A stretch of DNA of 64,000 bases. It comes from Patescibacteria group bacterium (lineage in GTDB: Bacteria > Patescibacteriota > Patescibacteriia > 2-01-FULL-39-33). Shown here piece by piece: positions 5,614 through 21,002 of the stretch (positions are counted from its first letter, which is position 1; each line of letters opens with the position of its first letter). The stretch covers positions 6,605-70,604 of the forward strand of contig JBAZRV010000005.1 in NCBI GenBank assembly GCA_041662745.1, in the 5' to 3' direction. Under the pieces are notes generated by a model. The model was given only the letters and a program-made list of their open reading frames with translations, was not told the DNA's origin and searched no databases. The translations under genes were made by a program, and so were the position numbers.

Positions 5614-5663
5614 CCAAGCATAAAAATCTAAAATATAATAAGGTTTTCAATTTTTAAAATAGA

Positions 5664-5729
5664 ACGACCGGCATTCATGGCGAATACCGGTCGTTTGGAA
5701 AACAAATTCAAAGCTCAGCGGACTGGATT
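5664..5729. repeat. distal copy of a 66-bp direct repeat (attR-like) carrying the displaced 3' end of tRNA-Asn
   Basis: 62/66 identity with 20881-20946. Contains the hairpin acgaccggcattcatgGcgaataccggtcgt, the flank ggaaaacaaattcaaag, and the 16-nt tRNA 3' end ctcagcggactggatt, then diverges. Confidence 0.7.
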
Positions 5730-6098
5730 TCCGTCTCATCTTTTCTTCCGAAAAGATTGCGGTGTCGCGGTCAGAGCTGAATGCTCCCAGGGTCGCATCC
5801 AGCTACGCTCAACTGCGTTTTATTTTGACAGAATTCAAAATAAAACTTGTTTCGTTCCTGCCCTGTTCGAATCCAACTAAACTGAAAATAGTTTAAAATA
5901 AAACAGGGCATAAAGCCCCGTTTTATTTTAAACAAGTCCAAAGCTCCACGCTACGGTCTGGAACCATTTTTACCAAGGGTTCTTGGGGTCTTTATGAGCG
6001 TTTTCTACCGGGAATCGGTCGGGGTAAAATGCGACAAATGCGACAGTACTTTATGCTGGTTTTATTGGACAAAATGAAGATTTGATAGTCCAATATTA

Positions 6099-6647
6099 CT
6101 ATACATTAAAATTATACCCAACGGGAGGATTATCTAATAATTCTTTGTACTCATTATTATGTCTATCTATTTCCCCTCTATCTACGGAATAGATATTTCC
6201 AAGCGTGTCTAAAATATATATATAATCACAATTAACAAGGTTAACATCAATTAATTTCTGGGTATAAATAAAACCCTCCTCATTTAATCGTACGGGAGCA
6301 TCGGATAATGGCGTATTAATTTTTATTTGACCAAAACGTCCATATATTAGTCTGCTTGCAAATATTCCATCCTTGCCAGTTTTTATTATGTTTATAAAAG
6401 AAACAACTTTATTTTTTGAAATTATATCAAAACCCAATCGTAATTTTAAATTCGCTTTTTGTCTTGAATAATCATACAACTTCCAATAAGCATTTATAAA
6501 TAAGCCACCAATTGAAAAAACAAATGCGGCGATAGAAAGTATTAATGCCATTGGAATATCCAAATATATATTAATCAAAAAAATCAGAAGCAATACTATT
6601 GTTATACTTAACAATATTAACAATATTGGCAATCGAAATTTATCCAT
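6099..6647 (-). CDS. hypothetical membrane protein (2 N-terminal TM helices); third gene of the AlbA_2 operon
   Basis: ORF in a very AT-rich block. N-terminal TM helices (LPILLILLSITIVLLLIFLINIYL, ALILSIAAFVFSIGGLFINAY). Its start lies 3 bp after the upstream gene's stop. Confidence 0.5.
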   Translation of the reverse strand: MDKFRLPILLILLSITIVLLLIFLINIYLDIPMALILSIAAFVFSIGGLFINAYWKLYDYSRQKANLKLRLGFDIISKNKVVSFINIIKTGKDGIFASRLIYGRFGQIKINTPLSDAPVRLNEEGFIYTQKLIDVNLVNCDYIYILDTLGNIYSVDRGEIDRHNNEYKELLDNPPVGYNFNV

Positions 6648-6650
6648 ATT

Positions 6651-7373
6651 TTATAATCTTCTTTCCAAAAATTTTTTCTGATCTTCGACAAAAATCTTTT
6701 TATCTACATTATCCCAATCAAATTTCTTAAAAATTTCAATGGTTGTATCAAGAGCAATCTCATTTGTCAAATTACAAATTTGATCCCGCGAATATACTTT
6801 TTTAATCAGAATTTTATCCTCCTTAAATTTACATATATATGCTCGGTTTGTTTCTCTTAAAAATATATCCCAAAAAAATAACATTCTGTTATTGACTCCC
6901 ACTAATTCAATAATAATTTCCAGTGAGTCAATATTTTCTATATTAGTTAATAATCTTTTAGAGAATTCCAAAATTTCTGTTATAGAATAAAGTGCTCCAA
7001 TAATACTTAAAAATTTATCAACTTTTACCCCGTATTCGTCTTGATATTCCTTCACTTTTTGCGGGGATAATCTCAGATCTTCCCTCATGGAAAAATAATG
7101 TACAAATTGTCCGGTATTATAAAATCTCCAATATTCATAAACTGGCCCCTCAGGCCAATCACAAAATGAGTCAACGCTGTTATTACTACTAGATATAATA
7201 CCGGTTTGACGATCTACGTGCGGGTAATCCCATCCCCGCAACGATACTCTACTTTTTTCAATAATTTTTTTACAATCAGATAGAGATTCAATTAATTTAT
7301 CATCATATTTATTTGGTCTAATAATAACCCTCCAATATCCCTTTAATTTAATTTTGTCTAATAATTCACTCAT
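6651..7373 (-). CDS. hypothetical protein; middle gene of the AlbA_2 operon
   Basis: 240-aa ORF with no recognisable motif. Its start overlaps the stop of the AlbA_2 gene by 4 bp (ATGA). Confidence 0.5.
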   Translation of the reverse strand: MSELLDKIKLKGYWRVIIRPNKYDDKLIESLSDCKKIIEKSRVSLRGWDYPHVDRQTGIISSSNNSVDSFCDWPEGPVYEYWRFYNTGQFVHYFSMREDLRLSPQKVKEYQDEYGVKVDKFLSIIGALYSITEILEFSKRLLTNIENIDSLEIIIELVGVNNRMLFFWDIFLRETNRAYICKFKEDKILIKKVYSRDQICNLTNEIALDTTIEIFKKFDWDNVDKKIFVEDQKKFLERRL

Positions 7374-8014
7374 AAATTATCTTTTATTAAATCAGTATTA
7401 AATTTATCTGAATCTGTTTCAGTGTCCACATTTAATAAGTTAACACAAGGGAGTTTTTTTAATATATCTTCTTTTTTCTTTTGAACCATCCGATCTAATA
7501 ATTCGCGCCACTCATGAATACTGGATATTTCCCTAGACTCAATCGGGGCTTTCGATCTGATATATATCGCATTCTTTCTTAACGCAATATTTTCATAATG
7601 ATTGCCCCCTTGCTTTTTAAACAGAGCAAAATCTGTACATACAGTGGGTTCAATTGATTCATGAATCTGTAAAATGATAAAGTTTTTAGATTCATCATCA
7701 ATTATTAAATTATCAGAAAAAATAGTAAACTCAATAATTGGGTCACAAAATCTTTTTATGAACCTCGCGATATCATCATAATTAAAAGATTGAAAATCGC
7801 TATCAGTCATACCCGATAAACTAACGCTTCGGTCTTTTTCTTCTTTGACACCCAAAACAATCACGCCACCCTGATCATTATTAGCCATAGCCAACATAGC
7901 TTTTAAAACGTTTATTTTCGTTTCGTAAGCATTCCAATTCAGTGATCCTTTATATTCAATGCTTTGTTCCTCATGACGACGTATTATGTAATTCGAAAAT
8001 TCTTCATTAAACAT
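7370..8014 (-). CDS. AlbA_2 (Schlafen-like) putative DNA-binding domain protein
   Basis: N-terminal region fits the AlbA_2 pattern (EQSIEYKGSLNWNAYETKINVLKAMLAMANNDQGGVIVLGVKEE). The C-terminal half is uncharacterised. Confidence 0.55.
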   Translation of the reverse strand: MFNEEFSNYIIRRHEEQSIEYKGSLNWNAYETKINVLKAMLAMANNDQGGVIVLGVKEEKDRSVSLSGMTDSDFQSFNYDDIARFIKRFCDPIIEFTIFSDNLIIDDESKNFIILQIHESIEPTVCTDFALFKKQGGNHYENIALRKNAIYIRSKAPIESREISSIHEWRELLDRMVQKKKEDILKKLPCVNLLNVDTETDSDKFNTDLIKDNL

Positions 8015-8549
8015 CTGATTAATAAATTATTATTTTAATTAAACTTACATTATCACTCTACACCCAAATTGTTATCGAATCAAGATGATTGAACAGTATT
8101 TTCCTATTGCTAACCTCGCAAAAAATATTCAAAAAACCCAGCAAAAAAGCCCTTTTGACAGCCATATAACAAAAGAGTATATTGAAAATAGGCCAGTCAT
8201 AATTCAACCAATAACAAAACCCCCCGAAAAAATTTACTTGACAAATTGGTTTTTTAGGAGTATAGTGACGAAAGGATGAGGTGAAAACCACCGCCGAAAA
8301 ATGCTATTTCAACAATTCATTAAAATGCCACCCTTAATCGGGCAACGCAAGCTCCCTTCATAGAGCCTCTAGAGTTTTAATGCGCATAGCGGTAATATTT
8401 CTAAACCGCAAACCGGAGTAATCCTCTGGTTGGTCTCAATAACATATAGTGAGAGGCCCAGAAGCAGAATTTAACCATGAAAATGGTAAAGTTTTGCGTC
8501 TGGGCCTCTCTTTTATTTTTCAAATTTTTAACAAATTAACAATAAATCT

Positions 8550-8918
8550 ATGTCAAAGACAAAATTTATCAGCACGATCGACTCCGATAATATCGAAGTC
8601 ATCGATCGCGTTCAAAAAGTGGCTGAATTCATCGAATTCGTCAATTGGTCAGCCACTCCGAGCCGATTTCGGCAGCCTAAAAACCAGAAGGATTTAGCTG
8701 CCGAAATCGGAGTGAGTATCGATTCGCTTACTGACTGGAAAAAACATCCGAGCTTCTGGCCGCTAATGCAAATTGCCTTGCGGAAATGGTGCCAAGATCA
8801 AATCCCCGACATTGTCGGCGGATTATACAGCAATGCCTGCGGCAAAGGCAAAGCGGGCGATGTCAAGATGTTCCTGCAATTAGCGGGGCTGATTGAGAAT
8901 AATAAAACTAATAAATAA
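8550..8918 (+). CDS. small HTH protein, phage terminase-small-subunit-like
   Basis: HTH segment QKDLAAEIGVSIDSLTDWKKHPSFW resembles TerS N-termini. Its stop is 8 bp before the ParB-MTase start. Preceded by a large stem-loop. Confidence 0.4.
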   Translation: MSKTKFISTIDSDNIEVIDRVQKVAEFIEFVNWSATPSRFRQPKNQKDLAAEIGVSIDSLTDWKKHPSFWPLMQIALRKWCQDQIPDIVGGLYSNACGKGKAGDVKMFLQLAGLIENNKTNK

Positions 8919-8926
8919 CGAAAAAT

Positions 8927-10276
8927 ATGAATGAAAATTCAAACCAAGCCCCAACGGGCTTAAAAATCGTGGAAGTTCCGATCACTGAGCTTCATGCTTC
9001 CGAGTATAACGCTCGGAAGCATTCCAAAGAACAGGCTAATCAGCTCAGGGAGTCGATTGAGCGATTCGGGTTAGTCGATCCGATTATCTGCAATAATGCT
9101 CCAGAAAGGCAAAATATCGTCATTGGAGGCCACTTCAGGCTTGAGGTAGCCAAAGATCTCGGCTATGCCGAAGTTCCAGTCGTCTACGTTAATATCCCCA
9201 ACATTGAGAAGGAAAAGGAATTGAATTTGCGTTTAAACAAGAACACCGGCGAATTCGATTTGGATCTGCTCGCTCAATTCGATGAATCCTTTCTGGCTGA
9301 CATCGGGTTTGATAGCGAGGAATTGGATCAAATCTTCCCGACTGAAGAAAATATTGAAATGTTCGATTTGAAGAAAGAACTGGACAAATTAGGCATTGGC
9401 GAGATTAAAGTCCAGAAAGGCGATATTTATGAGCTGAACGGTTCGAGGCTAATGTGCGGAGATTCCACTCTAGAAGCCGATGTGCTTGCGCTAATGGGCG
9501 ATGAAAAAGCCACGATGTGCCTCACAGATCCGCCGTATATTTTAGATTATTTGAAAGGCAAGACAAAAAATCAAGATGGCATTACCGAAGGCTTTGGCGC
9601 TAAGAAAAATCGAGTGTATATCGGAACCGAGGTCTTGCCCGATAATTTCACGGAATTATGGATGAATAACGTCGCAAAAATTCAAAAGCCTGATTTTTCC
9701 ATTATCGTTTTTGAGAATCCCAAAAACCTCAGGATAATCTGGAATGAACTCGAGAAGCACTGGAAATACCGCAATACGATTGTCTGGCATCTGCCGAACC
9801 GAGTCCAGGGATTTTCTTCCAAGTACAAGTTTTTCAATAAATCAGACATTGCTTTAGTCGGCACTGGCGGTGAAGTGGAATTGAATTTAGAAGACGAAAC
9901 AGAGGAATTGTTCCAGCAGGAATACGAGAATGCCATCTATGCGACCTCAGGCAAGCCTCATTGGGAATCTTACGAAGCTGGCAAGAAAATCTGTCCGACT
10001 GATTTCATTGAGTTTAAAGCGGCTGATGAGAAGTCCTCTGGGCAAGGCATCATCTTCGGCACCAAGCCGATTGAGATCCTTATTCCCTACATCAAAGTTT
10101 TGACCAAACGAGGTGATTTGATTGTTGAAGTCTATGGTGGAAGCGGCAGTACCCTTATCGCGGCCATTAAGATGAACCGTCGCTGTTACCTGATGGAGAA
10201 ACAGCCGATTTATGCCGAGGTCATCTTGAACCGCTGGGAAAGAGAAACTGGCAAGAAGCCAGTGAAGATTAACTAG
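8927..10276 (+). CDS. ParB-like nuclease domain fused to a beta-class N6-adenine/N4-cytosine DNA methyltransferase
   Basis: N-terminal ParB/Srx-like signature (IVEVPITELHASEYNARKH...GGHFRLEVAKDLGYAEVPVVYV). C-terminal catalytic motif IV (CLTDPPYILDY) and AdoMet motif (VEVYGGSGSTLIAA), in the DPPY-then-FxGxG order typical of the beta class. Confidence 0.8.
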   Translation: MNENSNQAPTGLKIVEVPITELHASEYNARKHSKEQANQLRESIERFGLVDPIICNNAPERQNIVIGGHFRLEVAKDLGYAEVPVVYVNIPNIEKEKELNLRLNKNTGEFDLDLLAQFDESFLADIGFDSEELDQIFPTEENIEMFDLKKELDKLGIGEIKVQKGDIYELNGSRLMCGDSTLEADVLALMGDEKATMCLTDPPYILDYLKGKTKNQDGITEGFGAKKNRVYIGTEVLPDNFTELWMNNVAKIQKPDFSIIVFENPKNLRIIWNELEKHWKYRNTIVWHLPNRVQGFSSKYKFFNKSDIALVGTGGEVELNLEDETEELFQQEYENAIYATSGKPHWESYEAGKKICPTDFIEFKAADEKSSGQGIIFGTKPIEILIPYIKVLTKRGDLIVEVYGGSGSTLIAAIKMNRRCYLMEKQPIYAEVILNRWERETGKKPVKIN

Positions 10277-10292
10277 CACCTTTGTTAAACGT

Positions 10293-10877
10293 ATGATTAA
10301 GAGTCCCACCAAAAAAAAGTTGCTCGCTGAATTGGAAAAAAACGGCAATGTCACCATTGCCTGTTTAAAGTCCGGAGTCAACCGAGCGACTTTCTACCGG
10401 TGGAAGCAAGAGAGTAATGAGTTCAAGGAGAGAGCGGAACAAGCTGAACTATCCGGACGAGAAAATAACTGCGATATTGCCGAACAATCTTTGATGTTGA
10501 AAATCAAAGATAAAGATTTAGGAGCGATTAAATACCTGTTAAGCCATAACTCTCCAAGATATAAAGGCAAGGAAACTAGCATGGCGGTGATTATCCACAA
10601 GAAGGAAATGCCTGAATCAGAATTTATTAGCATAGAGCAACCTGAAGTATATAATAGAGTTTGTCATGAATATGCAATTGAGCTTCAAGAAAAATATAAG
10701 TATTTGGGAGAAAAATTACCAAACAAACCCAATGGATTACCGATAGAACTTGATGAACTGCCTCTTTATGAAACATACATTGAAGATTGGAAAGAAGAAA
10801 GAAGAAAGGAAAGGGTCGCAGCAGGACTGGAGCATGAACGACAGGTTATGCCATGGATCGCGCAGAAGGAAGATTAA
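10293..10877 (+). CDS. HTH-domain protein, terminase small subunit-like or excisionase-like
   Basis: N-terminal HTH (NVTIACLKSGVNRATFYRWKQE). Lies 16 bp after the ParB-MTase gene. The charged C-terminal half is uncharacterised. Confidence 0.4.
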   Translation: MIKSPTKKKLLAELEKNGNVTIACLKSGVNRATFYRWKQESNEFKERAEQAELSGRENNCDIAEQSLMLKIKDKDLGAIKYLLSHNSPRYKGKETSMAVIIHKKEMPESEFISIEQPEVYNRVCHEYAIELQEKYKYLGEKLPNKPNGLPIELDELPLYETYIEDWKEERRKERVAAGLEHERQVMPWIAQKED

Positions 10878-10880
10878 TGA

Positions 10881-11963
10881 TTATTCCAAATGGGTGCTGG
10901 CTTTTATAACCAGCAATATGTCATCGTAATTTTGCAAAAATTCCTGCGGTTCTATTTTGTAAGTATTTTCCAATAATTCATCTGCTGTCGGTTTAAGCTT
11001 TGATTTGGATATTTCGTTATAAAAAGCATTGAAATATTTGTCAAACACTTCTTTATCGGTATGATTCTTGAGCCAGCCGAATTTAATCAAAAATGTGCCG
11101 TCGGAATAGATTGAGAATGGCGAAATAGTCGAACTAAGCTTTTTGATTATTGGCGCAAACGAACCATTGGCATTACCAGTACCCCATTTTATCTTGTCAG
11201 TATTCGCTTTGAGATATTCATAAAGCTTAAATACTTTCTCTGCTTCCGCACCTAATTTTTCTTTCGCTTGAATAAAAAAACTTTCTTCATCCCAGATTCT
11301 CCTTTGGTTAATAGTAGAAACAGACATGCCCTTTTTTACCTCTACGCCAAACAACTTGGGAATCATTATCTCGTACTGCTCGTACTTGTAATATTCCATT
11401 TGAACGGCATAGATATCGAAATGGCTATTCTGGTTGATATAGACAATCAGGTCTTTCAACCTGTCTTCAATCGAATCCATCAGAATAACGAATTTGATAT
11501 TGCCTTGCTGGAGGTTATTTTTAATGGCTTCCAGCATGTCAACTACCTGCTCATCGTCAATATTAAAAAATGCCTTGGCTTTCTCTTCAAAACTGACTTT
11601 AAATTTATTACTAACCTCACTATTTATCTTAGCGATGAATTCGCTAAAGTCGCTATGGCGCCAAAGCGAAGCTCCGTAATCAAGGGCTTGGGCCACGACT
11701 GTTCTTTTGTCGGGATTCTTGTAAAGCTTAGTTTCCACGACATAGATGTCGCCATCCTTGTCGATAGCCAAAGCATCGATGGGGCCAGACTCGGTCGAGA
11801 ATTCCCTGGCGACAACAAATAGCTTCTTGTCTTCTTCGATTTCATAGACAGGAATGGACTCGGGGTTCTCATGGATATAATTCTGCAAATAGCCTTCTTT
11901 CTCAAAGATAGACTTATCAATCCTCTGAGCCTTTTTGCCGTCTTGAGAAATAATTATGGACAT
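10881..11963 (-). CDS. hypothetical protein with putative N-terminal PD-(D/E)xK nuclease-like motif (NucS/DUF91-like)
   Basis: D-x(n)-E-x-K arrangement (GPIDALAIDKDGDIYVVETKLYK) resembling the NucS/DUF91 endonuclease core. The rest is uncharacterised. Confidence 0.35.
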   Translation of the reverse strand: MSIIISQDGKKAQRIDKSIFEKEGYLQNYIHENPESIPVYEIEEDKKLFVVAREFSTESGPIDALAIDKDGDIYVVETKLYKNPDKRTVVAQALDYGASLWRHSDFSEFIAKINSEVSNKFKVSFEEKAKAFFNIDDEQVVDMLEAIKNNLQQGNIKFVILMDSIEDRLKDLIVYINQNSHFDIYAVQMEYYKYEQYEIMIPKLFGVEVKKGMSVSTINQRRIWDEESFFIQAKEKLGAEAEKVFKLYEYLKANTDKIKWGTGNANGSFAPIIKKLSSTISPFSIYSDGTFLIKFGWLKNHTDKEVFDKYFNAFYNEISKSKLKPTADELLENTYKIEPQEFLQNYDDILLVIKASTHLE

Positions 11964-11967
11964 AGGA

Positions 11968-12297
11968 TTATGATTGGCCTACCTTAATACGGGATTGGAT
12001 AAAGTCGCTATATAGCTTTTGACCCTCAGGATCGCCTGAAGCGACTACCCCGTCTTTGTTAAGTAGGATGGTTAAATTCAGTGTCTTGGCCGGCTTATTG
12101 GCAAAATACAGATAAAGGATGCCGGGGATAATAGCGCAACATAATAGCAATAAGGCTAAGAGGCAGCTGCCTTTCTTGGCAGGAATCTGCTTCTGGTAAT
12201 TGACCACTTTGTCAGAGTGGCTGATTAGAAGCCAGCCTGAGCCGTTAACGGCCATATAGTCGATGAAGTCATTTAATACTTCGTTTGATTCGCTCAT
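11968..12297 (-). CDS. small membrane protein
   Basis: One TM helix (CLLALLLLCCAIIPGILYLYF). Its stop is 4 bp upstream of the 10881-11963 gene. Confidence 0.4.
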   Translation of the reverse strand: MSESNEVLNDFIDYMAVNGSGWLLISHSDKVVNYQKQIPAKKGSCLLALLLLCCAIIPGILYLYFANKPAKTLNLTILLNKDGVVASGDPEGQKLYSDFIQSRIKVGQS

Positions 12298-12682
12298 AGA
12301 GTTTTTGGGTTAATAATAAAGCCAGCTAAGTGGTTTTAGCTGGCTTGAGAGAATTTGCATAAACACAAAGCCCCACGCCAGCTGAGCCTTACGGCCCCAT
12401 ACCCGTTTCCAGGCATGACCCAACAAAGAGTCGCTGATCGTGGGGATCAGTATCTTTGTTGGGTATTTTGAGCCATGCCCGCCAAATGACGGGTTTAGGC
12501 TCTGCTTTCGCTATAAATTGTACTTTTATTGTACTATAAAAGGTTCGACTTTGTCCACCATACTAGCTTAAATAACAGAATCCGCGAAGTCGAGTTATCA
12601 ACAGGTTGCCTACTGCCGGGGTCTGGACTCCCAGCCGCCAGTCCGGCATCATGTCCCTTACATAAGAAATAACTTCAAATTT

Positions 12683-14008
12683 ATGGGACTAATAAGTGAC
12701 AAGGAAATGGCGGTTTTAGGGCATACCAGGACGTTTGAGGCGGTCTTACCGGTAAAGTACTGTCTTTATGCGAGAAAGTCGACCGAGGACGACGAGAGGC
12801 AGGCTTTGAGCATCGAATCTCAGGTTAAAGAGATGCTGGAGCAAGCCCAAAAAGACAAACTGAATATTGCGGAAATAAAGAGAGAATCCCACTCAGCCAA
12901 AGACTCAGGTGAAAGGCCAGTATTCAATAAACTGATGAGGGAGATTAAGGAGGGAAAATTCGACGGCATCCTGACCTGGGCTCCAGATAGATTGAGCCGT
13001 AACGCTGGCGACTTGGGCAGTATCGTCGATTTGATGGACAGAGGCATGATCAAGGAGATAAGAACGCACGGCCAAACATTCATCAACTCCCCTAATGAGA
13101 AATTCCTGCTGATGATTCTGTGTTCCCAAGCCAAATTAGAAAATGATAATAAGGGCGAGAATGTTAAAAGAGGATTGAGAGCCAAAGTGGAAATGGGCTG
13201 GAGGCCGGGCATGCCACCGCTCGGTTATCTTCACGACAAGAATGGCGACAAAGGCAAAAGAAGAGCTTTTACTGATCCCAAAAGAGCGCCGATCATGAAG
13301 CAATTGTTTGATAAAGTTGCCTATGAGGGCTGGAGCGGTCGAGCCATATTCAAATGGCTCGATGAAATGGATTTCAGAACTAGATCGGGCAAGAAGATGA
13401 CCTTAAGCTCAATCTACCTCGTACTCAAAAATACTTACTACTATGGCTACTTTGAATATCCAGTGGGCAGCGGCAATTGGTATAAAGGCGGACACGAGCC
13501 GATTATAACAAAAGAAACTTTCGATGAAGCTCAAATACAACTCACGGTAGCGCCAAAATCCAAACCAGGCACCAAAGAATTCAGCTTCACTAAAATGATA
13601 AAATGCGGAGCTTGCGGATCAGGTGTAACGGCAGAAGAGAAATACAAAAAACTGAGCGATGGCTCAGTCAAAAAATATATCTATTACCACTGCAGCAGAT
13701 TCAATGATCTTAAATGCAAAGAATCCTACATCAGGGAAGAAAACTTAACTATTCAGCTAGTCAAATTAATAGATAAAATCGACATTAATCTTTTGAAAAC
13801 CCAAAAGAGAATTAAGGATGAGATAGACCGCTATCAAAAATTCACTAAAAATATCCTAGGTGTAGATAACAAAATAAAGATGCCGGAGATAAATATGAAA
13901 GACTATGCCAGATATGTTTTGACGGATGGCACTAGAGAAGAAAAAAGAGAACTGCTTAATTGCCTGGATTCTGAATTAAAATTGATGGGGCAGAAGATTT
14001 ATATTTAA
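12683..14008 (+). CDS. large serine recombinase (resolvase/invertase catalytic domain, recombinase domain and zinc ribbon)
   Basis: N-terminal catalytic domain with the nucleophile-Ser context (YCLYARKSTEDDERQALSIESQ) and resolvase motifs (GILTWAPDRLSRN). Central recombinase domain, then C-terminal Cys cluster (CGACGSG...YYHCSRF). Confidence 0.85.
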   Translation: MGLISDKEMAVLGHTRTFEAVLPVKYCLYARKSTEDDERQALSIESQVKEMLEQAQKDKLNIAEIKRESHSAKDSGERPVFNKLMREIKEGKFDGILTWAPDRLSRNAGDLGSIVDLMDRGMIKEIRTHGQTFINSPNEKFLLMILCSQAKLENDNKGENVKRGLRAKVEMGWRPGMPPLGYLHDKNGDKGKRRAFTDPKRAPIMKQLFDKVAYEGWSGRAIFKWLDEMDFRTRSGKKMTLSSIYLVLKNTYYYGYFEYPVGSGNWYKGGHEPIITKETFDEAQIQLTVAPKSKPGTKEFSFTKMIKCGACGSGVTAEEKYKKLSDGSVKKYIYYHCSRFNDLKCKESYIREENLTIQLVKLIDKIDINLLKTQKRIKDEIDRYQKFTKNILGVDNKIKMPEINMKDYARYVLTDGTREEKRELLNCLDSELKLMGQKIYI

Positions 14009-14095
14009 CGCATAATTGCAATATCTCATTCCAATTAATAATACATCTGGTTAATATATTGCCACAGGTAGCGCTGAAAATCTTAAAAAGCTAAA

Positions 14096-15565
14096 TTATG
14101 ACGCTTTTAAAAAAATATATGTATTCCTCAATGCAGGAAAAATTCTTAACAGCTTATTAGAATTTTTGTCAAAATCAGGCAAATTTTTAATTGCAATCAA
14201 AAAATACCTAGCAATTTTCTCTTCGTTAGAGAATAATTGATAAAAATCATTTTTTATGGACATCTTTGAACCATAAGAGCCAAACTTAGCAATAAAAATT
14301 AAATAATATCCAATAAACATAAAATTAGATGTGCCATAAACCTTTTCCTTTTCTAATGACAAAACTAATTCCATGTCAATTTCATTTGCTTTTAATAATG
14401 CTCTTAAAATAAAAATTTTCTGGTATAAGTAAGGCGACGATTTCAGAACGCTTATTAATAATCGTTGAATATCAACCCTATCTATGTAATCCTCTAGATA
14501 ATAACAAATTTCTTTTGAGTAGCATGGATCGAAAAGATTATTTTTTAAAATGCTTTCCAACGGGTGGCTTAAATGTAATCTTTTGAATTTATAGATGCAA
14601 AACTTAAAAACGGTCTTATTAATTTTGTCAACTGCTCTATTTATTACAGCATCGTCCCACATTTCTTTCAGTTGATCATCAACGAAATCGCAATTATCAT
14701 CATCAAAATCGGACATTAAATAATTAACAAAATCCATAGTGTCAGAATAATTATTTTTATTGGTTGTATGTTTCGAATAATTAATTATCTCAGTTTTACC
14801 GCCATTGAGATGCAGATTTAATGGCCTCAGTAATTCCGTCAATTTGCTTAATGCCCTTCTAACGCCGATTTCATCATCCGAAAATACCCTTATATCATCC
14901 ACAAATCTATAATAATTAAATCCAGACTCGATCATGGACTGATCAACCTCGTATAAATATACATTTGCCAAAAATGAAGCACAATCATTGCCCTGGCATA
15001 ATCCAATCTCATCTTCACACCAAGTATTTAAAAGATGGCTTAACTTATCTGAGATTTCTTTTTCTGTTCCTAAATATTTTAATATCTCGATGATTTTTTT
15101 GATTTTGATATGTTCAAAAAATGCGTTGATATCGGTTTTTAAAAGAAACCCATTCGGATTATTAATAAAATTATCATTTGATTTCTTTATAAAACTTTTC
15201 CAACTTTCAATATTTTCATTCCTATTCAAAAAATAATTTTTCTTTTTTGATATCCTATAACCGAAACTGATTTGGCTTGAAACTAGCAACTTATCAATAT
15301 CTTTGCTAAATCTGTTTAGTATTAATTGAAAATACAACCTATCTAGGATAGAAATGAAATATCCTGGCCTCAATATTAAATTCGGCTTCGGTATGTCTAA
15401 TATCAATAAGCTATGAGGAGTATAATTATCAAAATCAATTTCATAAAAAATTGATGGATTATTAATATAATCACGATAATTAATGACATCAGGCCAAAAA
15501 TCATCGTTTTCATCCTTACTGATATTGCTTACGGCTACATTAATTTCTTCCCTAGTGAAATTCAT
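14096..15565 (-). CDS. reverse transcriptase (standalone, defence/Abi-like) with alpha-helical C-terminal domain
   Basis: RT motifs: TDINAFFEHI (motif 2-like), GLCQGNDCASFLANVYLYEVD (motif 4/QG), YYRFVDDIRVF (YxDD catalytic motif), LHLNGGKTEI (motif 6-like). The ~200-aa C-terminal region has no identifiable domain. The gene is very AT-rich. Confidence 0.8.
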   Translation of the reverse strand: MNFTREEINVAVSNISKDENDDFWPDVINYRDYINNPSIFYEIDFDNYTPHSLLILDIPKPNLILRPGYFISILDRLYFQLILNRFSKDIDKLLVSSQISFGYRISKKKNYFLNRNENIESWKSFIKKSNDNFINNPNGFLLKTDINAFFEHIKIKKIIEILKYLGTEKEISDKLSHLLNTWCEDEIGLCQGNDCASFLANVYLYEVDQSMIESGFNYYRFVDDIRVFSDDEIGVRRALSKLTELLRPLNLHLNGGKTEIINYSKHTTNKNNYSDTMDFVNYLMSDFDDDNCDFVDDQLKEMWDDAVINRAVDKINKTVFKFCIYKFKRLHLSHPLESILKNNLFDPCYSKEICYYLEDYIDRVDIQRLLISVLKSSPYLYQKIFILRALLKANEIDMELVLSLEKEKVYGTSNFMFIGYYLIFIAKFGSYGSKMSIKNDFYQLFSNEEKIARYFLIAIKNLPDFDKNSNKLLRIFPALRNTYIFLKAS

Positions 15566-15630
15566 ATAAACATATTCATTAAAACTGACTAATCCTTATG
15601 ATTATTCATCTTAAATTTTCGAACATACAA

Positions 15631-16047
15631 TTACAATTTCGATACTAGCTTATTTTCGATTTTAGACATAGACTTATTAAAATTTCTTTGAGTTAATTGG
15701 TGTTCCCAAATCCTCAGAACCTTCCATCCCATTCTTTTTAATTTTCTTCTATTCTTAACATCCCGATGAATATTAGCTTCAATTTTAGCGCGCCAATACT
15801 TCTTTGGCAAGCGTTTTTTCGTATTGCTAAAATTGTAACCGTGCCAAAAATCGCCATCAATAAACACGGCGATTTTTTTGCGTGGCAGGGCGATATCCGG
15901 CTTGCCCGGCGCCCTTTTATAATGCTTTTGGAAATATACGCCTCTTTTCCTTAATTCACCGAAAACTAAAAGCTCCACTTTGGTGTTCTTGCCCCTGATC
16001 TTAGACATTATCTCGCTTCTTTTCTCTTTTGAAAACACGTCTGCCAT
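15631..16047 (-). CDS. vsr: very-short-patch-repair endonuclease Vsr
   Basis: Close match to E. coli Vsr along its length (MADV...KRSEIMSKIRGKNTKVE...PGKPDIAL...IAVFIDGDFWHG...GWKVLRIWEHQL). Confidence 0.85.
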   Translation of the reverse strand: MADVFSKEKRSEIMSKIRGKNTKVELLVFGELRKRGVYFQKHYKRAPGKPDIALPRKKIAVFIDGDFWHGYNFSNTKKRLPKKYWRAKIEANIHRDVKNRRKLKRMGWKVLRIWEHQLTQRNFNKSMSKIENKLVSKL

Positions 16048-16085
16048 AATTCACTGTTGGGATTATTTTCTATTCATTTTCTAAT

Positions 16086-16125
16086 ATGATATAATATTGT
16101 CATACATGTGGATAACTCCACAGGA
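16086..16125 (+). promoter_or_regulatory. putative promoter plus palindromic operator upstream of the LexA-Dcm gene
   Basis: Extended -10 (tgatataat) at 16086-16094, followed by a perfect 16-bp palindrome TGTGGATAACTCCACA (16107-16122) ~23 bp upstream of the ATG. Read directly from the sequence. Confidence 0.4.
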
Positions 16126-16145
16126 ATAAAAAATAACTAGAAAAT

Positions 16146-17696
16146 ATGCCCACACTTACTAAGAAACAAAAAAACGTTCTTGATTTTATTGAGGGCTATC
16201 GCGATAGGAAGCACTATTCCCCCTCCCATGAAGAGATCAAGAATCACTTCAAGCTATCTTCCGTTTCAACTGCGCATCATTATATCTCCAAGTTGCAGAA
16301 GGCCGGATATCTGAAAAAAGAAGATAACCAGCCGAGATCAATAAACCTCTGCTTCGAACCGGTAATCCAGATTGATCTATTGGGCAATATTACTGCCGGC
16401 CAGCCAATCGAAGCGATTGAATTAGGCAAGGAAACAATCGCTATTCCTAGCTATGGACTTAATAGGAATAGTAGCTATTACGCTCTCAAAGTCAAGGGCG
16501 ACAGCATGATCGATGAAGGGATATTCGACGGCAGCATCGTAGTCATCAAGAAGCAATCAACTGCTGAAAACGGCCAGACCGTAGTCGCCGTGATAGATGA
16601 TAACGAGGCAACACTGAAAATGATATACCGCGAAAAGAATAAATTCCGCTTGCAGCCAGCCAACCAAAGCATGCTTCCCTTTTACCGCAAAGAAGTGGAA
16701 ATCCGCGGGGTAGTGATAAAAATCATCAGGGATTTATATAAAGAAGAGCAGAAATTCAGAACTCTTGATCTATTCGCAGGCGTAGGTGGCATCAGGCTGG
16801 GATTTGAAAAAGCCGGTTTCGAGACCGTATTCGCTAATGACTTTGAAAAAGCCTGCGCAGATACTTATAACAAGAACTTCAAGACTTCAAAATTAGTAGT
16901 AGAGGATATTAGGAGAATCGGAATCGATGATCTGCCTGAATTCGACTTCCTGCTCGGCGGCTTTCCTTGCCAGGCATTCTCAATAGCTGGCTACCGCAAA
17001 GGATTCGAAGATGACAAAGGGCGGGGCAACCTATTCTTTGATGTCGCAAGGATAATAGAAACCAGAAGGCCGACAGGATTCCTAATGGAAAACGTCAAGA
17101 ACCTTAAAAGCCATGATAACGGACGGACATTCAAAATCATCAAAGAAACCCTGGAAAACCTCGGCTATCATATCAAAGCCAGGGTTTTGAATAGCGTGGA
17201 GTACGGCAATATCCCCCAGAACCGTGAAAGGATTTACATCGCCGGATTCAGGGACAAAAGGCATTGCGATAATTTCGAATTCCCAAAGCCGGTGAAACTG
17301 ACAAACAAGGTTGCAGATCTTCTCGAAAAAAAAGTTGATGAAAAATATTATTACAATGGAAAGCCTCTTTACCAAAAGCTTAAGGATTTCGTGAAAGAAA
17401 AAAATAAAGTCTACCAATGGCGCCGCCAATACGTCCGTGAAAATAAAAAAGGCGTCTGTCCGACGCTGACTGCGAATATGGGGATGGGCGGCCATAATGT
17501 TCCGATTATCAAGGATGACAAAGGCATTAGGAAGCTTACGCCGTTAGAATGTTTTAGGCTCCAGGGATTTCCAAAGAGCTTCGAGCTTCCAGCTAATTTG
17601 GCTGATTCAGCTCTTTACAAGCAGGCCGGCAATTCAGTTACAGTTACAGTATTGGAAGCGGTAGGCAAGCAAATGATGCAGGCTGTCAGCGACTAA
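16146..17696 (+). CDS. fusion protein: full-length LexA-type repressor (wHTH plus S24 autopeptidase) fused to a C5-cytosine DNA methyltransferase (Dcm-type)
   Basis: aa 1-~195 align with LexA: wHTH (LTKKQKNVLDFIEGY...SKLQKAGYL), Ala-Gly cleavage site (ITAGQP), Ser nucleophile (KVKGDSMIDEG) and Lys (EATLKMI). aa ~200-516 carry C5-MTase motifs I (LDLFAGVGGIRLGF), IV (GGFPCQAFSIAG), VI (ENVKNL), VIII (QNRERIYIAGF) and X (RKLTPLECFRLQGFP). Confidence 0.85.
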   Translation: MPTLTKKQKNVLDFIEGYRDRKHYSPSHEEIKNHFKLSSVSTAHHYISKLQKAGYLKKEDNQPRSINLCFEPVIQIDLLGNITAGQPIEAIELGKETIAIPSYGLNRNSSYYALKVKGDSMIDEGIFDGSIVVIKKQSTAENGQTVVAVIDDNEATLKMIYREKNKFRLQPANQSMLPFYRKEVEIRGVVIKIIRDLYKEEQKFRTLDLFAGVGGIRLGFEKAGFETVFANDFEKACADTYNKNFKTSKLVVEDIRRIGIDDLPEFDFLLGGFPCQAFSIAGYRKGFEDDKGRGNLFFDVARIIETRRPTGFLMENVKNLKSHDNGRTFKIIKETLENLGYHIKARVLNSVEYGNIPQNRERIYIAGFRDKRHCDNFEFPKPVKLTNKVADLLEKKVDEKYYYNGKPLYQKLKDFVKEKNKVYQWRRQYVRENKKGVCPTLTANMGMGGHNVPIIKDDKGIRKLTPLECFRLQGFPKSFELPANLADSALYKQAGNSVTVTVLEAVGKQMMQAVSD

Positions 17697-18877
17697 TCAT
17701 CCTCGGATTCCCCAGACCTATCTTCCTTTACCTCCCCCGCAAATTCTTCATAAGATCCGACTTTAGTGAAGTCAATGTCATATTTTCCTTCTCCAATTTT
17801 GTATATTACGACTGAGTCCAAGCCGATCTCCTCTAATTTGCCATAAGTCAAAAGATCTCTTTCTTTCAGATCCAGTATGTCTCGAAGAAGCCACTGGCCC
17901 AGTGCCGAATTAGGATTGCTCATCAACGCCTTTGATCCGTCCTGGCATACCTTGGCTGACATTTCAGCGCCATTCGGCAGGAGCAGGGTGAATGAAGTGT
18001 CGCGCGGAGGGAAAAATCCCGGATATTCAGAATGTATCAATGCCGGGATCGGAATATACACTTCATCAGGATTTCTCGGCCTGCCTAAGGCATTCCATTG
18101 ATTGAGTCCGCTCCTGGCCGGCACTTCTTTAATTCCTTTTTTTGATGAATAAAGCGGAAGAAAAACATGAGTAAGAGCCTTAATGGGCGCAAAAACAACT
18201 TCCCGTTCAACTTTCCTGAAAACATTTTCAAGCGCATCAAAGGGATTCTCCAGTATTTTTACCGGAAAATCCAATAATGCATCGGATAAATTAAACCTTT
18301 TGTATAATGTGCTCTTGGTCACATTGAAGGAGTACTCATTGCTGCCGTCGCTGAATGAAATCGCATTCGCATTCTTTCCTGATTTGATATTCCTTATTTT
18401 TGATAAATTTACCAGATCCATTCCTGATTCATAAACCAAAATACCGCCCTTTTTCCGAGTAACGCAGTGATACATCATTTTTTCCAAACCGAATATTCTT
18501 TTTGTCGCGTTAATCCGCTCATTCCTCAGCCCGGCTATCTTAATGACTTTTCCCTTATCATCCAAATTTCGGAATAAATTATGCTCGCTATTGAATTCAG
18601 CGATCTTCTGCATAGTCGCTCCATTGCCTTCAAGGAAAGTTTTGATTCCGATTCCAACTTTATTCTTAGCCGCATCAGCTGAACAGTCGGTTCTGGATAA
18701 ATTGTCGGCATTAAAAGACTTGCAAAATAAATTTTCTGCAATCCTGTATTGGATATACGGCTCCTGGCTTTCTGAAAACAAACGGGACAACGATCCGATC
18801 GTACGGAGCATCTCCTGATAATATGATATGCTTTTCTTGTCCTGCTTATTCAGAAACATATAATGATATTTTCTCAC
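17693..18877 (-). CDS. putative type II restriction endonuclease, cognate to the adjacent C5-MTase (function inferred from context)
   Basis: 394-aa ORF convergent with the MTase gene, 3' ends overlapping by 4 bp. No known motif recognised; the call rests on the dcm-vsr neighbourhood. Confidence 0.35.
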   Translation of the reverse strand: MRKYHYMFLNKQDKKSISYYQEMLRTIGSLSRLFSESQEPYIQYRIAENLFCKSFNADNLSRTDCSADAAKNKVGIGIKTFLEGNGATMQKIAEFNSEHNLFRNLDDKGKVIKIAGLRNERINATKRIFGLEKMMYHCVTRKKGGILVYESGMDLVNLSKIRNIKSGKNANAISFSDGSNEYSFNVTKSTLYKRFNLSDALLDFPVKILENPFDALENVFRKVEREVVFAPIKALTHVFLPLYSSKKGIKEVPARSGLNQWNALGRPRNPDEVYIPIPALIHSEYPGFFPPRDTSFTLLLPNGAEMSAKVCQDGSKALMSNPNSALGQWLLRDILDLKERDLLTYGKLEEIGLDSVVIYKIGEGKYDIDFTKVGSYEEFAGEVKEDRSGESEDD

Positions 18878-18920
18878 TTTACCGCTATTGTGTCAATTCG
18901 AATATAAACTGCCGAAAGCC

Positions 18921-18985
18921 AGTCTAGAACCAAAACGACCGGTTCGCCAGTGGCGGATCGGTCGCGCAGGAAAACAAGTTCTTGG
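18921..18985. repeat. third copy of the hairpin-plus-flank repeat (lacks the tRNA segment)
   Basis: gtctagaaccaaaacgaccgg is identical to 20869-20889. Followed by a different hairpin (ttcgccagtggcggat...cggtcg) and ggaaaacaagttc. Confidence 0.55.
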
Positions 18986-19018
18986 TTTTTATATTTGGAT
19001 ATAATAATGAAATTTAAT

Positions 19019-20050
19019 TTAGGTGGTAATCTCACCAACAATACTAGTATTAATCGCTCGTGATAAAGCTTTCGCTGATTTTAGTCCTTGTGCCAAAACC
19101 CACATAAATTTAACTTGAGCCATAACATCAGTTAAATCGCCAGCTGGAATAGCCCCCGCATCCAATGCTAATTTTCCTGGTTCATAAATATCCATATGGG
19201 TTTGACCGCCGACAAATTTAGTCGAAACAATAACTGGAATTTTAAGAACATTGACGGATTCACTGATAACTGGAAGAAGTGAGTACTCATTTTCACTCGG
19301 AACATTACCTGCACCCAATGATTTTAGTAACAAACCTTCGACCCCCCCCAATCGCAAAATTTTCGTAAGAATTTTTGGCTCTAGCCCTGGCACTAAATCA
19401 ATTGCAAGAATTCCTCGCTGGAATTCTGCATTAACTTTTAATGGTGTTTTTCTTTCCACCCTGAATGCTTCTGGAATAAAATGAACACCTACGGCGTCTA
19501 TCCTGGCTAAATGTGGAAAGGCTGGCGAATCAAATGCAGGGAATCTTGCTTCGCTGGTTTTTATAGCTCTGACGGCTCGCAGGACGCTATCGCTAAAACA
19601 AATCATTACTTCCGCAATTTTCTCATCGCAAGCTTGAAGAGCTGTCTTCATTGAATTTTCTAAATTGAAGCGTGCGTCTGTACCATAGGCAACTAAGGGA
19701 AGTTGTGAGCCCGTAAAGACAATAGGAATTTTTAACCCTCTACCAAGCGCAAGAGCAACACCGCCAGCTGTATATGTCATAGTGTCAGTACCATGCGTAA
19801 TAATAATAGCGTCCGCTTGATTATGGATTTCTTTGATTTTAAGGGCTAATTTTTTCCAATGGGTCGGGTTAATATTTGTGCTATCCAGACGTTCAAGCTC
19901 TAAGAAAGAAACATCTGCCATTTCTTGTAATGATGGAACTATAGCAAGAATCTCCTTTATGCTTTTAGCGGGCTTCAAAACTCCCGATGGGTCTGGAACC
20001 ATTGCAATAGTTCCGCCAAATCCTAGTATTACAATTTTTCGTTTCTTCAT
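19019..20050 (-). CDS. ansA: L-asparaginase, type I family
   Basis: Asparaginase signatures (ILGFGGTIAM and ITHGTDTMTYTAGGVALAL); full-length match of ~340 aa. Confidence 0.8.
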   Translation of the reverse strand: MKKRKIVILGFGGTIAMVPDPSGVLKPAKSIKEILAIVPSLQEMADVSFLELERLDSTNINPTHWKKLALKIKEIHNQADAIIITHGTDTMTYTAGGVALALGRGLKIPIVFTGSQLPLVAYGTDARFNLENSMKTALQACDEKIAEVMICFSDSVLRAVRAIKTSEARFPAFDSPAFPHLARIDAVGVHFIPEAFRVERKTPLKVNAEFQRGILAIDLVPGLEPKILTKILRLGGVEGLLLKSLGAGNVPSENEYSLLPVISESVNVLKIPVIVSTKFVGGQTHMDIYEPGKLALDAGAIPAGDLTDVMAQVKFMWVLAQGLKSAKALSRAINTSIVGEITT

Positions 20051-20053
20051 AAG

Positions 20054-20569
20054 TTATTTTTCGTTTATTTCTTTTGAGGCAATTATCTCACCGTCTTTTC
20101 TTTCATCAATAGTATAACCGACTTTGGCATGCCCTTGTTTTAATAATTCAGTTTCTGCTGGTTCTTCAGCGATTAATTTGCCAAAAACTAAGCTGCAATC
20201 ATTTGCCCGAGCGACAGAGTCAGCGATTCCAAGCAGCTGCTCGCCGATTTTTTTACCTCGCAAATCAGGCCTGACGTATCTATCCGCAATATACAAATAA
20301 TTAGCCGAACTGCCATCTTTTTTATTATAAATTTTAAACAGTTTTAGATTTATAAAATAACGTTGATCTTCGCCTGTAAGATTGATTCTGTAGGCGGTCG
20401 ATTTCGCTAAATCAACATCCAATAACTTTACGCCAACGGTTATAAGTTCGGAATAATTGTTTATCTTGCCTAATCTGGTTTCCAGAGCTTGAATTTGGCC
20501 ATCGACTCTGATTCGATATTCATCATCAACAATTAAGCTGTAATCCCTAGTTACGGCAGAATCATACAA
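20054..20569 (-). CDS. putative GNAT-family N-acetyltransferase
   Basis: Acetyl-CoA-binding motif-A-like segment (YVRPDLRGKKIGEQLLGIA). Its stop is 4 bp upstream of ansA. Confidence 0.4.
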   Translation of the reverse strand: MYDSAVTRDYSLIVDDEYRIRVDGQIQALETRLGKINNYSELITVGVKLLDVDLAKSTAYRINLTGEDQRYFINLKLFKIYNKKDGSSANYLYIADRYVRPDLRGKKIGEQLLGIADSVARANDCSLVFGKLIAEEPAETELLKQGHAKVGYTIDERKDGEIIASKEINEK

Positions 20570-20880
20570 GGTGCTGTCTTTAGCCGCCTGGATAAATTTA
20601 ATATATATTTGTTTAGTGGCTCCAATAGTTTATCGCGCCATGCCTTCAGCCGATGACAAAAGACGTTCTCTTTCAGCCAAAGACAACTCGGACAACCTTT
20701 CTGGATTGTGCAAATAATCGGCTAATTGGGGCTCGCCTTCATACTGTTCCCGATCCTCGTAACGTCCAAATTTTTCCATAAATATCATTCATTTATATGT
20801 GTATTATACACTATTTTAACTAAAAACAAAAGTCGAACGAACTAACTTCGAACTTTGCCCCCAATCGGTCTAGAACCAAA

Positions 20881-20946
20881 ACGACCGGCATTCATGACGA
20901 ATGTCGGTCGTTTGGAAAACAAGTTCAAAGCTCAGCGGACTGGATT
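20881..20946. repeat. proximal copy of the 66-bp direct repeat (attL-like), overlapping the 3' end of tRNA-Asn
   Basis: Matches 5664-5729 at 62/66 positions. Positions 20931-20946 are the tRNA 3' end. Confidence 0.7.
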
Positions 20947-21002
20947 CGAACCAGTAACCTACCGGTTAACAGCCGGTTGCTCTACCATTGAGCTACCGCT
21001 GA
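20931..21002 (-). tRNA. tRNA-Asn (anticodon GTT)
   Basis: Manual fold: TCAGCGG/CCGCTGA acceptor stem, GCTC-AATGGTA-GAGC D arm, ACCGG-CTGTTAA-CCGGT anticodon arm (GTT), ACTGG-TTCGAAT-CCAGT T arm, discriminator G. CCA is not encoded. Confidence 0.85.

Follow-up and report, generated by a model that had tools for sequence, protein, structure and literature searches.

A candidate single-gene defence reverse transcriptase of the Class 1 UG/Abi type in a Patescibacteria genomic island

Introduction

In a 64,000-nucleotide stretch of DNA from a Patescibacteria group bacterium (assembly GCA_041662745.1, contig JBAZRV010000005.1, positions 6,605 to 70,604; this whole stretch is called the window below), a gene for a reverse transcriptase (RT) lies directly downstream of, and in the same orientation as, a gene for a Vsr-family endonuclease. 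This arrangement raises two questions. To which kind of RT does the protein belong, and does it act alone or together with Vsr? A preliminary description, made from the sequence alone, had placed the protein among the defence RTs of the Abi, DRT and UG classes and had raised the possibility that Vsr is its partner.

We find that the protein has the fold of a Class 1 UG/Abi polymerase with intact catalytic motifs, that neither a protein partner nor a flanking RNA is conserved among its homologues, and that it is associated with a defence island. In our preferred reading, the RT is probably a self-sufficient, single-gene anti-phage polymerase of this class, in which untemplated, protein-primed DNA synthesis would lead to abortive infection. 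A partnership with Vsr is largely refuted by comparison with other loci.

The RT gene and its catalytic motifs

The features of the gene are as follows, in window coordinates.

14096..15565, minus strand: RT gene, 489 aa plus stop, ATG start (open reading frame, Pfam, PADLOC, AlphaFold 2 model)
14756..15565, minus strand: N-terminal extension and fingers/palm RT domain, aa 1-270 (invariant alignment columns, residue mapping)
14894..14905, minus strand: catalytic motif C, F221-V-D223-D224 (D223 and D224 invariant across the family)
14720..14722, minus strand: codon of Tyr282, a candidate protein-priming residue (residue invariant; role by inference only)
14099..14755, minus strand: C-terminal alpha-solenoid, predicted to be alphaRep/HEAT-like, aa 271-489, in the place of the thumb (AlphaFold 2 model, fold matches)
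15566..15630, minus strand: 65-bp spacer between vsr and the RT gene, without a terminator-like site

The 489-aa open reading frame with the string YRFVDD, as first described, was confirmed. The Pfam family RVT_1 matches the protein with an E-value of 1.3e-14, and motif mapping places YRFVDD at aa 219-224 and identifies motif C as FVDD, in which F221 occupies the position of the tyrosine in the canonical YxDD. Motif A carries D145 (codon 15131-15133), motif B is QGNDCASFLANVYL and motif D/E is NLHLNGGKT. An invariant acidic motif, D18..DDFW..D26 (aa 18-26, written DDFWPD below), is present in the N-terminus. In an alignment of 22 RT sequences of the family (alignment A1), residues D145, D223, D224 and K257 are invariant, and the window RT is full length and retains all of the residues that are invariant in the family.

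The C-terminal domain and the fold of the RT

The preliminary description had noted a helical C-terminus of about 200 aa and had called it uncharacterised. An AlphaFold 2 model built on the 22-sequence family alignment (pLDDT 90, pTM 0.86) bears out the first of these points, as residues 274-489 (approximately 215 aa) are entirely helical, and it allows the second to be revised. When the model was compared with the PDB by using Foldseek, full-length matches to DRT4/UG15, AbiK and DRT6 were obtained with TM-scores of about 0.6 over 510-527 columns. Matches that extend over 360-420 residues were limited to DRT6, DRT4, AbiA, AbiK and Abi-P2. The RTs of diversity-generating retroelements, group II introns, retrons, LINE elements and telomerase align with the polymerase core of 180-290 residues only, and this core-only alignment spans 245-270 aa for the group II intron RTs. 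The C-terminal half of the RT separately matches HEAT and alphaRep proteins (IntS4, CpcE/F and artificial alphaRep). A search of the PDB by sequence only returned RT cores, and the full-length relationship is visible by fold search alone.

The defining feature of Class 1 UG/Abi proteins is a HEAT-like alpha-helical repeat (alphaRep) that is joined to the C-terminal end of the RT domain (Mestre et al. 2022, PMC9226505), and the likeness to HEAT was first noticed in groups UG20, UG21 and UG23 (PMC9226505). In the Abi and Class 1 polymerases, the alphaRep replaces the thumb (PMC9508834, PMC12783706). Because the full-length fold matches of the window RT are only to Abi, DRT4 and DRT6 proteins, and because its C-terminal half matches HEAT and alphaRep proteins, the modelled C-terminal domain is read here as the alphaRep/HEAT-like hallmark of Class 1 UG/Abi, with the thumb replaced.

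Two other identities were considered and rejected. A retron joins an RT of about 300-350 aa with an msr/msd ncRNA and an effector; here, no retron Rfam match flanks the gene and retron RTs align with the core only. For a group II intron maturase, which has thumb/X and DNA-binding domains and lies within an intron ribozyme RNA, there is no intron Rfam match in the window, the alignment is again confined to the core, and an alphaRep takes the place of the thumb. The earlier statement that the gene lacks group II intron and CRISPR neighbours also stands, as no Rfam family flanks the RT and no CRISPR-like array is found in the window.

Placement among the UG/Abi reverse transcriptases

The PADLOC profiles that match the RT over nearly its full length are RT_UG21 (4.7e-61, 205 bits), RT_UG32 (4.1e-60, 202 bits), UG9_small (3e-53), UG23 (1e-50, 171 bits), UG19 and UG20. 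The Drt8 profile, which ranks eighth, also matches the full length of the protein (1.2e-39, 135 bits). At least the top eight profiles all represent Class 1 UG/Abi groups, and the profiles of DRT6 (UG12) and DRT4 (UG15) are absent among the top matches. Together with the fold matches and the defence-gene neighbourhoods of the homologues, these profiles support the original assignment to the Abi/DRT/UG class. The RT is thus best read as one of the Abi/DRT/UG defence type, Class 1, rather than as a retron, group II intron or CRISPR RT.

Only a small family surrounds this protein. A word-indexed search returned 26 relatives, the best with 48% identity, and those that carry a source name come from Patescibacteria (Pacebacteria, Falkowbacteria and 'Patescibacteria group'). 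An exhaustive profile search covering 1.84 billion cluster representatives gave about 10 clusters (at 50% identity) with scores of 467-738 bits, mostly from Patescibacteria. The score then drops to 312 bits for the next full-length protein (313.5 for a 277-aa fragment), from where other UG-like RTs form a continuum.

Members of the family score 205-245 bits with their best PADLOC profile, which alternates between UG21 and UG32 with margins of 0.4-29 bits. Calibrators taken from the same match list behave differently: scores are 400-427 bits for UG23 members and 394 bits for a member of UG9_small, with margins of more than 115 bits. The RT family therefore reaches only about half of the score that true members of the calibrated groups (UG23 and UG9_small) obtain. 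The strongest UG21-like sequences (303-344 bits) fall outside the family. In a rough neighbour-joining tree, the 25 sequences of the RT family are monophyletic, their immediate sister consists of two unlabelled proteins, and UG21-, UG23- and UG32-like sequences are among the 32 neighbours that come next. Pfam detects no helix-turn-helix (HTH) domain in the RT protein, and positions 1-31 of the profile for UG32, the group with a fused HTH, are unmatched.

Two assignments to named groups were rejected. Membership in UG21 or UG32 is contradicted by the low scores, by the tie between the two profiles and by their alternation among family members. DRT8 (UG7) with a PD-(D/E)XK partner is contradicted by the low rank of its profile and by the fact that the nuclease is not conserved at homologous loci. 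Given the low scores, the alternation of UG21 and UG32, the drop from 467 to 312 bits and the rough tree, we conclude that these sequences appear to form a small unassigned branch of Class 1, close to UG21 and UG32, that is not a demonstrable member of a named group. The phylogenetic check proposed in the preliminary description was thus informative in part: the rough tree puts the family among UG21-, UG23- and UG32-like sequences, but a named group was not reached.

Search for a flanking non-coding RNA

Retron RTs are accompanied by a non-coding RNA (ncRNA), for which the locus was first described as having no space. In the window the flanks of the RT gene measure 65 and 87 bp and contain weak predicted hairpins (-10.6 and -11.4 kcal/mol), and Rfam searches at the gathering and E<=1 thresholds found no family flanking the gene. 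The 300-nt flanks of 12 RT loci share no conserved motif, only chance 11-17-mers. Intergenic space is short around several homologues, at 0-46 bp upstream, 0-75 bp downstream or on both sides, and some overlap the downstream gene; nearly no intergenic space is present on one or both sides of the RT in loci L016, L020, L022 and L054. There is no sign of a flanking ncRNA for this RT family.

These data bear on the alternative that the enzyme is an RNA-templated RT with an unrecognised ncRNA, Class 2-like as are DRT2, DRT9 and DRT10. The intact active site would suit such an enzyme, some RT loci do have 135-520 bp of flanking non-coding DNA, and the sequence search of the PDB also matches DRT9 (9ioa) and DRT2 at the level of the RT core. 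However, DRT9 and DRT2 align over approximately 265-270 aa only, and the fold, with an alphaRep for the thumb, is that of Class 1. When the four crowded loci and the absence of both a common nucleotide motif and an Rfam match in the flanks are also considered, we regard an RNA template of this kind as very doubtful.

Neighbourhoods of RT homologues

As the genes near homologues can indicate whether an RT works with others, we considered the genomic locations of the family. A contig scan with the single RT protein found no relatives, and when repeated with alignment A1 it gave 14 loci. In total, scans of the collections fetched 39 loci with RT homologues, of which 12 are close (35-46% identity).

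Two homologues are nested in type I restriction-modification (R-M) operons. In L020 (4580-8612) the order is hsdR-hsdM-RT-hsdS, with overlapping stops and starts, and in L054 (712-11793) it is hsdM...hsdS-RT-Fic-hsdR, with RhuM and three small open reading frames between hsdM and hsdS. Other homologues lie 35 nt after a type III res gene (L053), overlap the end of an EcoRI-like methylase gene (L022) or adjoin TIR (ThsB-like) and PDC-S65 genes (L015). At five loci the RT homologue stands alone between housekeeping genes. Four of these are flanked by SmpB/DinB, by NUDIX/DHH, by a diphthamide-synthase-like gene and by glycosyltransferase/AMIN, and the fifth by GyrA and a weak DAHP-synthase-like match that is below the Pfam cutoff.

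In the window and at all of the homologous loci examined, the RT gene has a lower G+C content than the sequences on either side, for example 0.30 versus 0.43-0.60 in an Acidobacteriaceae contig and 0.39 versus 0.54-0.63 in L021. This uniform difference points to horizontal transfer and indicates that the RT gene is a horizontally acquired, low-GC, single-gene cargo. The pattern of neighbourhoods is consistent with an autonomous single-gene defence module that is carried along in defence loci.

Three homologues deserve separate mention. Those in L003 (an Acidobacteriaceae metagenome-assembled genome), L004 (a Limisphaerales metagenome-assembled genome) and L021 have G+C contents of 0.27-0.39 within flanks of 0.32-0.63. 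For L003 and L004, the attribution to organisms outside Patescibacteria and the G+C contrast reflect either recent cross-phylum transfer or mis-binning. The homologue in L021 is C-terminally truncated, at 367 aa.

One alternative is modelled on PrrC with EcoprrI. The RT might be an abortive module coupled to R-M, latent beside a working R-M system and released when a phage blocks restriction. At five of the 15 informative loci (a raw count), window included, R-M genes immediately precede the RT gene in the same orientation, at distances from overlap to 65 bp, and these loci represent type I (L020, L054), type II (window, L022) and type III (L053) systems. However, the R-M types and the subunits beside the RT all differ, such that no protein partner is conserved, and at five loci the RT has only housekeeping genes as neighbours. 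Moreover, R-M genes are common in defence islands, and type I operons often host unrelated genes, as exemplified by Fic and RhuM in L054. We consider this coupling unlikely. A little less likely again is its extension to the clade as a whole, for which the arrangements hsdM-RT-hsdS, hsdS-RT-Fic-hsdR, res-RT, methylase-RT and vsr-RT form the basis: the RT clade would then be a restriction-linked second line of defence that is silenced by the neighbouring R-M system or senses its failure. If this were true, untemplated DNA synthesis would start once a phage disables restriction, as with PrrC and EcoprrI.

Vsr belongs to a restriction-modification cassette

The genes on the other side of the 65-bp spacer form a type II m5C R-M module that we treat as context outside the RT system.

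15631..18877, no strand assigned: R-M module as a whole (Pfam, PADLOC)
15631..16047, minus strand: vsr, 138 aa (PF03852, 6e-23)
16146-17696, plus strand: LexA-S24-Dcm fusion, 516 aa (Pfam, PADLOC)
17693-18877, minus strand: NgoFVII-like restriction endonuclease (Pfam, PADLOC)

The gap between vsr and the co-oriented RT gene, 15566-15630, is exactly the 65 bp first described, and no terminator lies within it. This proximity is the starting point for a two-gene system in which Vsr, as a PD-(D/E)xK nuclease, would serve as the effector of the RT or as a primer-generating partner. There is precedent for such a pairing, since a PD-(D/E)XK-like gene accompanies approximately 40% of the RTs of UG7 (DRT8). 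Identical RT and vsr genes also occur together on three independent contigs from three samples; however, with 100% protein identity these represent one strain and provide no independent support for the pairing.

The wider comparison gives a different picture. No Vsr match was found by tblastn at any of the 39 scanned loci with RT homologues, and neither Vsr nor another conserved neighbour is present on three further contigs that carry RT homologues. Searches of the 39 loci by tblastn with Vsr, LexA-Dcm, the restriction endonuclease, the serine recombinase, PDC-S11 and orf109 of the window revealed no co-occurring partner, the only match being a free-standing LexA in L001, and an all-against-all blastp comparison of the neighbours at the 12 closest RT loci revealed no recurrent family. 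Conversely, at eight loci that carry close homologues of Vsr (69-76% identity), a C5 methylase is adjacent in seven of seven visible flanks and an RT in none of the eight.

The two genes also differ in composition and abundance. The G+C content, overall and at third codon positions, is 0.283 and 0.280 for the RT gene versus 0.379 and 0.439 for vsr; the corresponding values are 0.439 and 0.505 for dcm and 0.414 and 0.443 for the restriction endonuclease gene. Vsr has more than 2,700 relatives, many at 70-81% identity, versus the 26 relatives of the RT. An alignment to E. coli Vsr (1cw0, 2.5e-15) shows that the window protein has retained the PD (Asp51) and FWH (His69) elements with the catalytic Asp and His; the zinc ligands are not conserved in this alignment. 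By these comparisons, Vsr of the window is a canonical, ordinary and abundant Patescibacteria protein. Finally, the DNA homology of the R-M-Vsr module ends inside the 3' end of vsr, approximately 55 nt before the stop codon. The linkage with Vsr that the preliminary description suggested is therefore absent from the homologous loci. A functional Vsr-RT pair is highly improbable and is, at the level of sequence comparison, essentially refuted, with Vsr belonging to the R-M cassette.

What, then, explains the position of the RT gene? A 3.2-kb segment of DNA corresponding to window positions 15679-15687 to 18861 recurs with 67-68% identity in L043, L044 and L046, in each case without an RT. As this homology ends within the 3' end of vsr, the conserved module stops at vsr. 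The gene directly downstream of vsr, co-oriented and separated by 1-106 bp, differs among L043, L045, L046, L047, L048 and L049, and the occupants of this position comprise an Mrr-like restriction endonuclease, an AAA_13 ATPase, GmrSD, CD-NTase with Cap15, DUF4238 with HEPN_AbiV, and an AlbA_2 gene set. Synteny with the window covers RpoD, tRNA-Asn and the R-M module in locus L046, which has the AAA_13 gene in the place of the RT. The position behind vsr appears to act as a slot into which different defence genes are repeatedly taken up as cargo. Because the gene after vsr differs between related loci, the RT is most simply read as one of several alternative cargo genes in this variable slot. 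A scan of positions 13800-16300 for promoters and terminators found no more sites than in shuffled controls. As the 65-bp spacer is without a terminator, the RT gene may be transcribed by read-through from vsr.

A proposed mechanism and its relation to known systems

The Class 1 enzymes that have been studied (AbiK, Abi-P2, AbiA, DRT4 and DRT6) are trimers or hexamers that prime on a tyrosine of their own and use no nucleic-acid template (PMC9508834, PMC12783706, PMC13213688). In the case of DRT4 and DRT6, host exonucleases are kept from the product by a DNA-binding protein of the phage, single-stranded DNA builds up and the cell dies (PMC9508834, PMC12783706, PMC13213688). By analogy, the window RT would form a trimer or hexamer, would use a tyrosine of its own as the primer and would make untemplated single-stranded DNA. 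Accumulation or stabilisation of this DNA in the course of phage infection would then cause abortive infection. The oligomeric state, the protein priming, the untemplated synthesis and the abortive outcome are thus all expectations drawn from these relatives.

The best candidate for the priming residue is Tyr282, and Tyr30 is an alternative. Tyr282 is invariant in 22 of 22 family members and lies at the junction of the RT domain and the alphaRep, where confidence in the model is lowest (block pLDDT 62-72). In AbiA, the equivalent linker supplies the priming residue, Tyr298 or Tyr303 (PMC12783706). Tyr30 lies in the N-terminal loop after DDFWPD, a position like that used in AbiK, and is replaced by F in one family member. 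Inspection by eye, not by alignment, found no conserved tyrosine in the pre-palm region at aa 100-135, where the equivalent of the priming residue Tyr125 of DRT4 might be expected. Our guess, by analogy, is that Tyr282 should be considered first.

Several known systems resemble the window RT to different degrees. DRT6 (UG12) and DRT4 (UG15) (PDB 9wy8, 9vdo, 9l9s) are likewise single-gene Class 1 defence RTs, but share only 14-16% identity with the window RT, whose clade is found mainly in Patescibacteria. AbiK, Abi-P2 and AbiA (PDB 7r06, 7r08, 8oz7) share 14-17% identity with it; AbiK and AbiA are larger, at approximately 600 aa versus 489 aa, and AbiA-large has a HEPN domain that the window RT lacks. 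The nearest profiles, UG21, UG32 and UG23, represent Class 1 groups with HEAT-like C-termini, although the NUDIX or SLATT partner of UG23 is absent beside the window RT. DRT8 (UG7) is similar in being a Class 1 RT of which one variant adjoins a gene of the PD-(D/E)XK superfamily, but the nuclease of the window is the canonical Vsr of a Dcm cassette and accompanies the RT at no other locus.

A number of points weigh against our interpretation of the RT as a self-sufficient anti-phage polymerase. As judged from the profile and tree comparisons, the clade is not assignable to any characterised DRT, and approximately one-third of the homologous loci are without defence neighbours. The products of Class 1 enzymes vary, from random single-stranded DNA (AbiK, DRT4) to protein-templated repeats (Drt3b, DRT7), and the product of the window RT could be patterned in the manner of the latter two. 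The position of priming varies as well, from the fingers loop (AbiK, Abi-P2) to the RT-alphaRep linker (AbiA) and the palm (DRT4). An ncRNA that overlaps coding sequence may have escaped the search of the flanks. In addition, the defence enrichment of the nearest groups, UG21, UG32 and UG23, was rated inconclusive (Mestre et al., PMC9226505).

This last point also speaks for the alternative that the RT is a non-defence gene, or a selfish or decaying transferred gene without current function in its host, as do the very low G+C content of the gene relative to the host and the truncated homologue in L021. However, the window RT is encoded by a full-length open reading frame that has kept all of the invariant family residues, identical copies were recovered in three samples, and the neighbourhoods are rich in defence genes in the window and at five homologous loci. 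We judge the loss or absence of a defence role to be rather improbable, and favour the single-gene anti-phage polymerase.

The tRNA-Asn island and its other genes

The island location noted in the preliminary description was confirmed by the identification of direct repeats that bracket a 15.2-kb segment at a tRNA gene.

5663..20946, no strand assigned: island, 15.2 kb, bracketed by 67-nt direct repeats at 5663-5729 and 20880-20946
20930-21002, minus strand: tRNA-Asn
11968-12297 and 10881-11963, minus strand: operon of orf109 and a PDC-S11-like nuclease gene, downstream of a LOOT RNA

The two copies of the repeat are 94% identical, and the right copy overlaps the 3' end of the tRNA-Asn gene. 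Besides the RT gene, the island contains R-M, PDC-S11 and AlbA_2 genes. A third, partial copy of the repeat hairpin (AACGACCGG...CCGGTCG, then GGAAAACAAGTTC) lies at 18922-18990, between the restriction endonuclease gene and an asparaginase gene (the right copy region is 20868-20946), and suggests stepwise accretion of the island. The island encodes a single recombinase, a large serine recombinase (12683-14008), which is an unexpected companion for a long repeat at a tRNA end. Convergent with the RT gene, it was considered as a mobility gene for the RT and rejected, as no match to it is found at the 39 scanned loci with RT homologues.

In the R-M module, the C5 methylase carries a complete LexA at its N-terminus, made up of the LexA DNA-binding domain and the S24 self-cleaving peptidase. 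At least five other Patescibacteria loci (L043, L044, L046, L048 and L049) have this fusion, always divergent from vsr. Among the loci with close Vsr homologues, it is common to four distinct loci and a duplicate contig; the restriction endonuclease is NgoFVII-like, in the same geometry, at three of the four and Bsp6I-like at the fourth. The 98-bp divergent spacer between vsr and dcm (16048-16145) contains the palindrome TGTGGA-TAAC-TCCACA. The fusion could tie expression of the methylase or of the R-M system to DNA damage, or could be a built-in controller; a single literature search brought up no account of a fusion of the LexA-S24-Dcm type.

A LOOT RNA (Rfam RF03000) is located at 12384-12501 on the minus strand, with 90.9 bits versus a gathering score of 46.4. 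It sits in the 385-bp spacer between the serine recombinase gene and orf109, 87 nt upstream of the orf109 operon and co-oriented with it. A three-gene set of low G+C content (0.28-0.32) occupies 6099-8014 on the minus strand, and its first gene encodes a Schlafen/AlbA_2-domain protein (7370-8014). For the first two genes of this set, homologues (34% and 46% identity) directly follow vsr in L049 (5512-6943), and on this comparison the pair is a candidate conserved two-gene defence module. Finally, a ParB-N domain is fused to an N6/N4 DNA methylase (449 aa, 8927-10276, plus strand), and an HTH protein follows (10293-10877). Such a pairing is typical of the cargo of phages or mobile elements, and these two genes may be a remnant element within the island.

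Implications

Adjacency to vsr in the window is no evidence of a nuclease partner for the RT; instead, the locus illustrates how the place behind vsr in an R-M cassette can serve as a variable defence slot. Because the clade falls outside the UG groups modelled in PADLOC v2, UG/Abi space appears to be more continuous than that scheme suggests. At 489 aa and with a confident structure prediction, the RT is a small candidate for the study of protein-primed, untemplated DNA synthesis. The genomes of Patescibacteria are very small and, apart from R-M, encode few known defences. To these, our analysis adds a compact and apparently self-sufficient clade of Class 1 UG/Abi polymerases that is centred on Patescibacteria.

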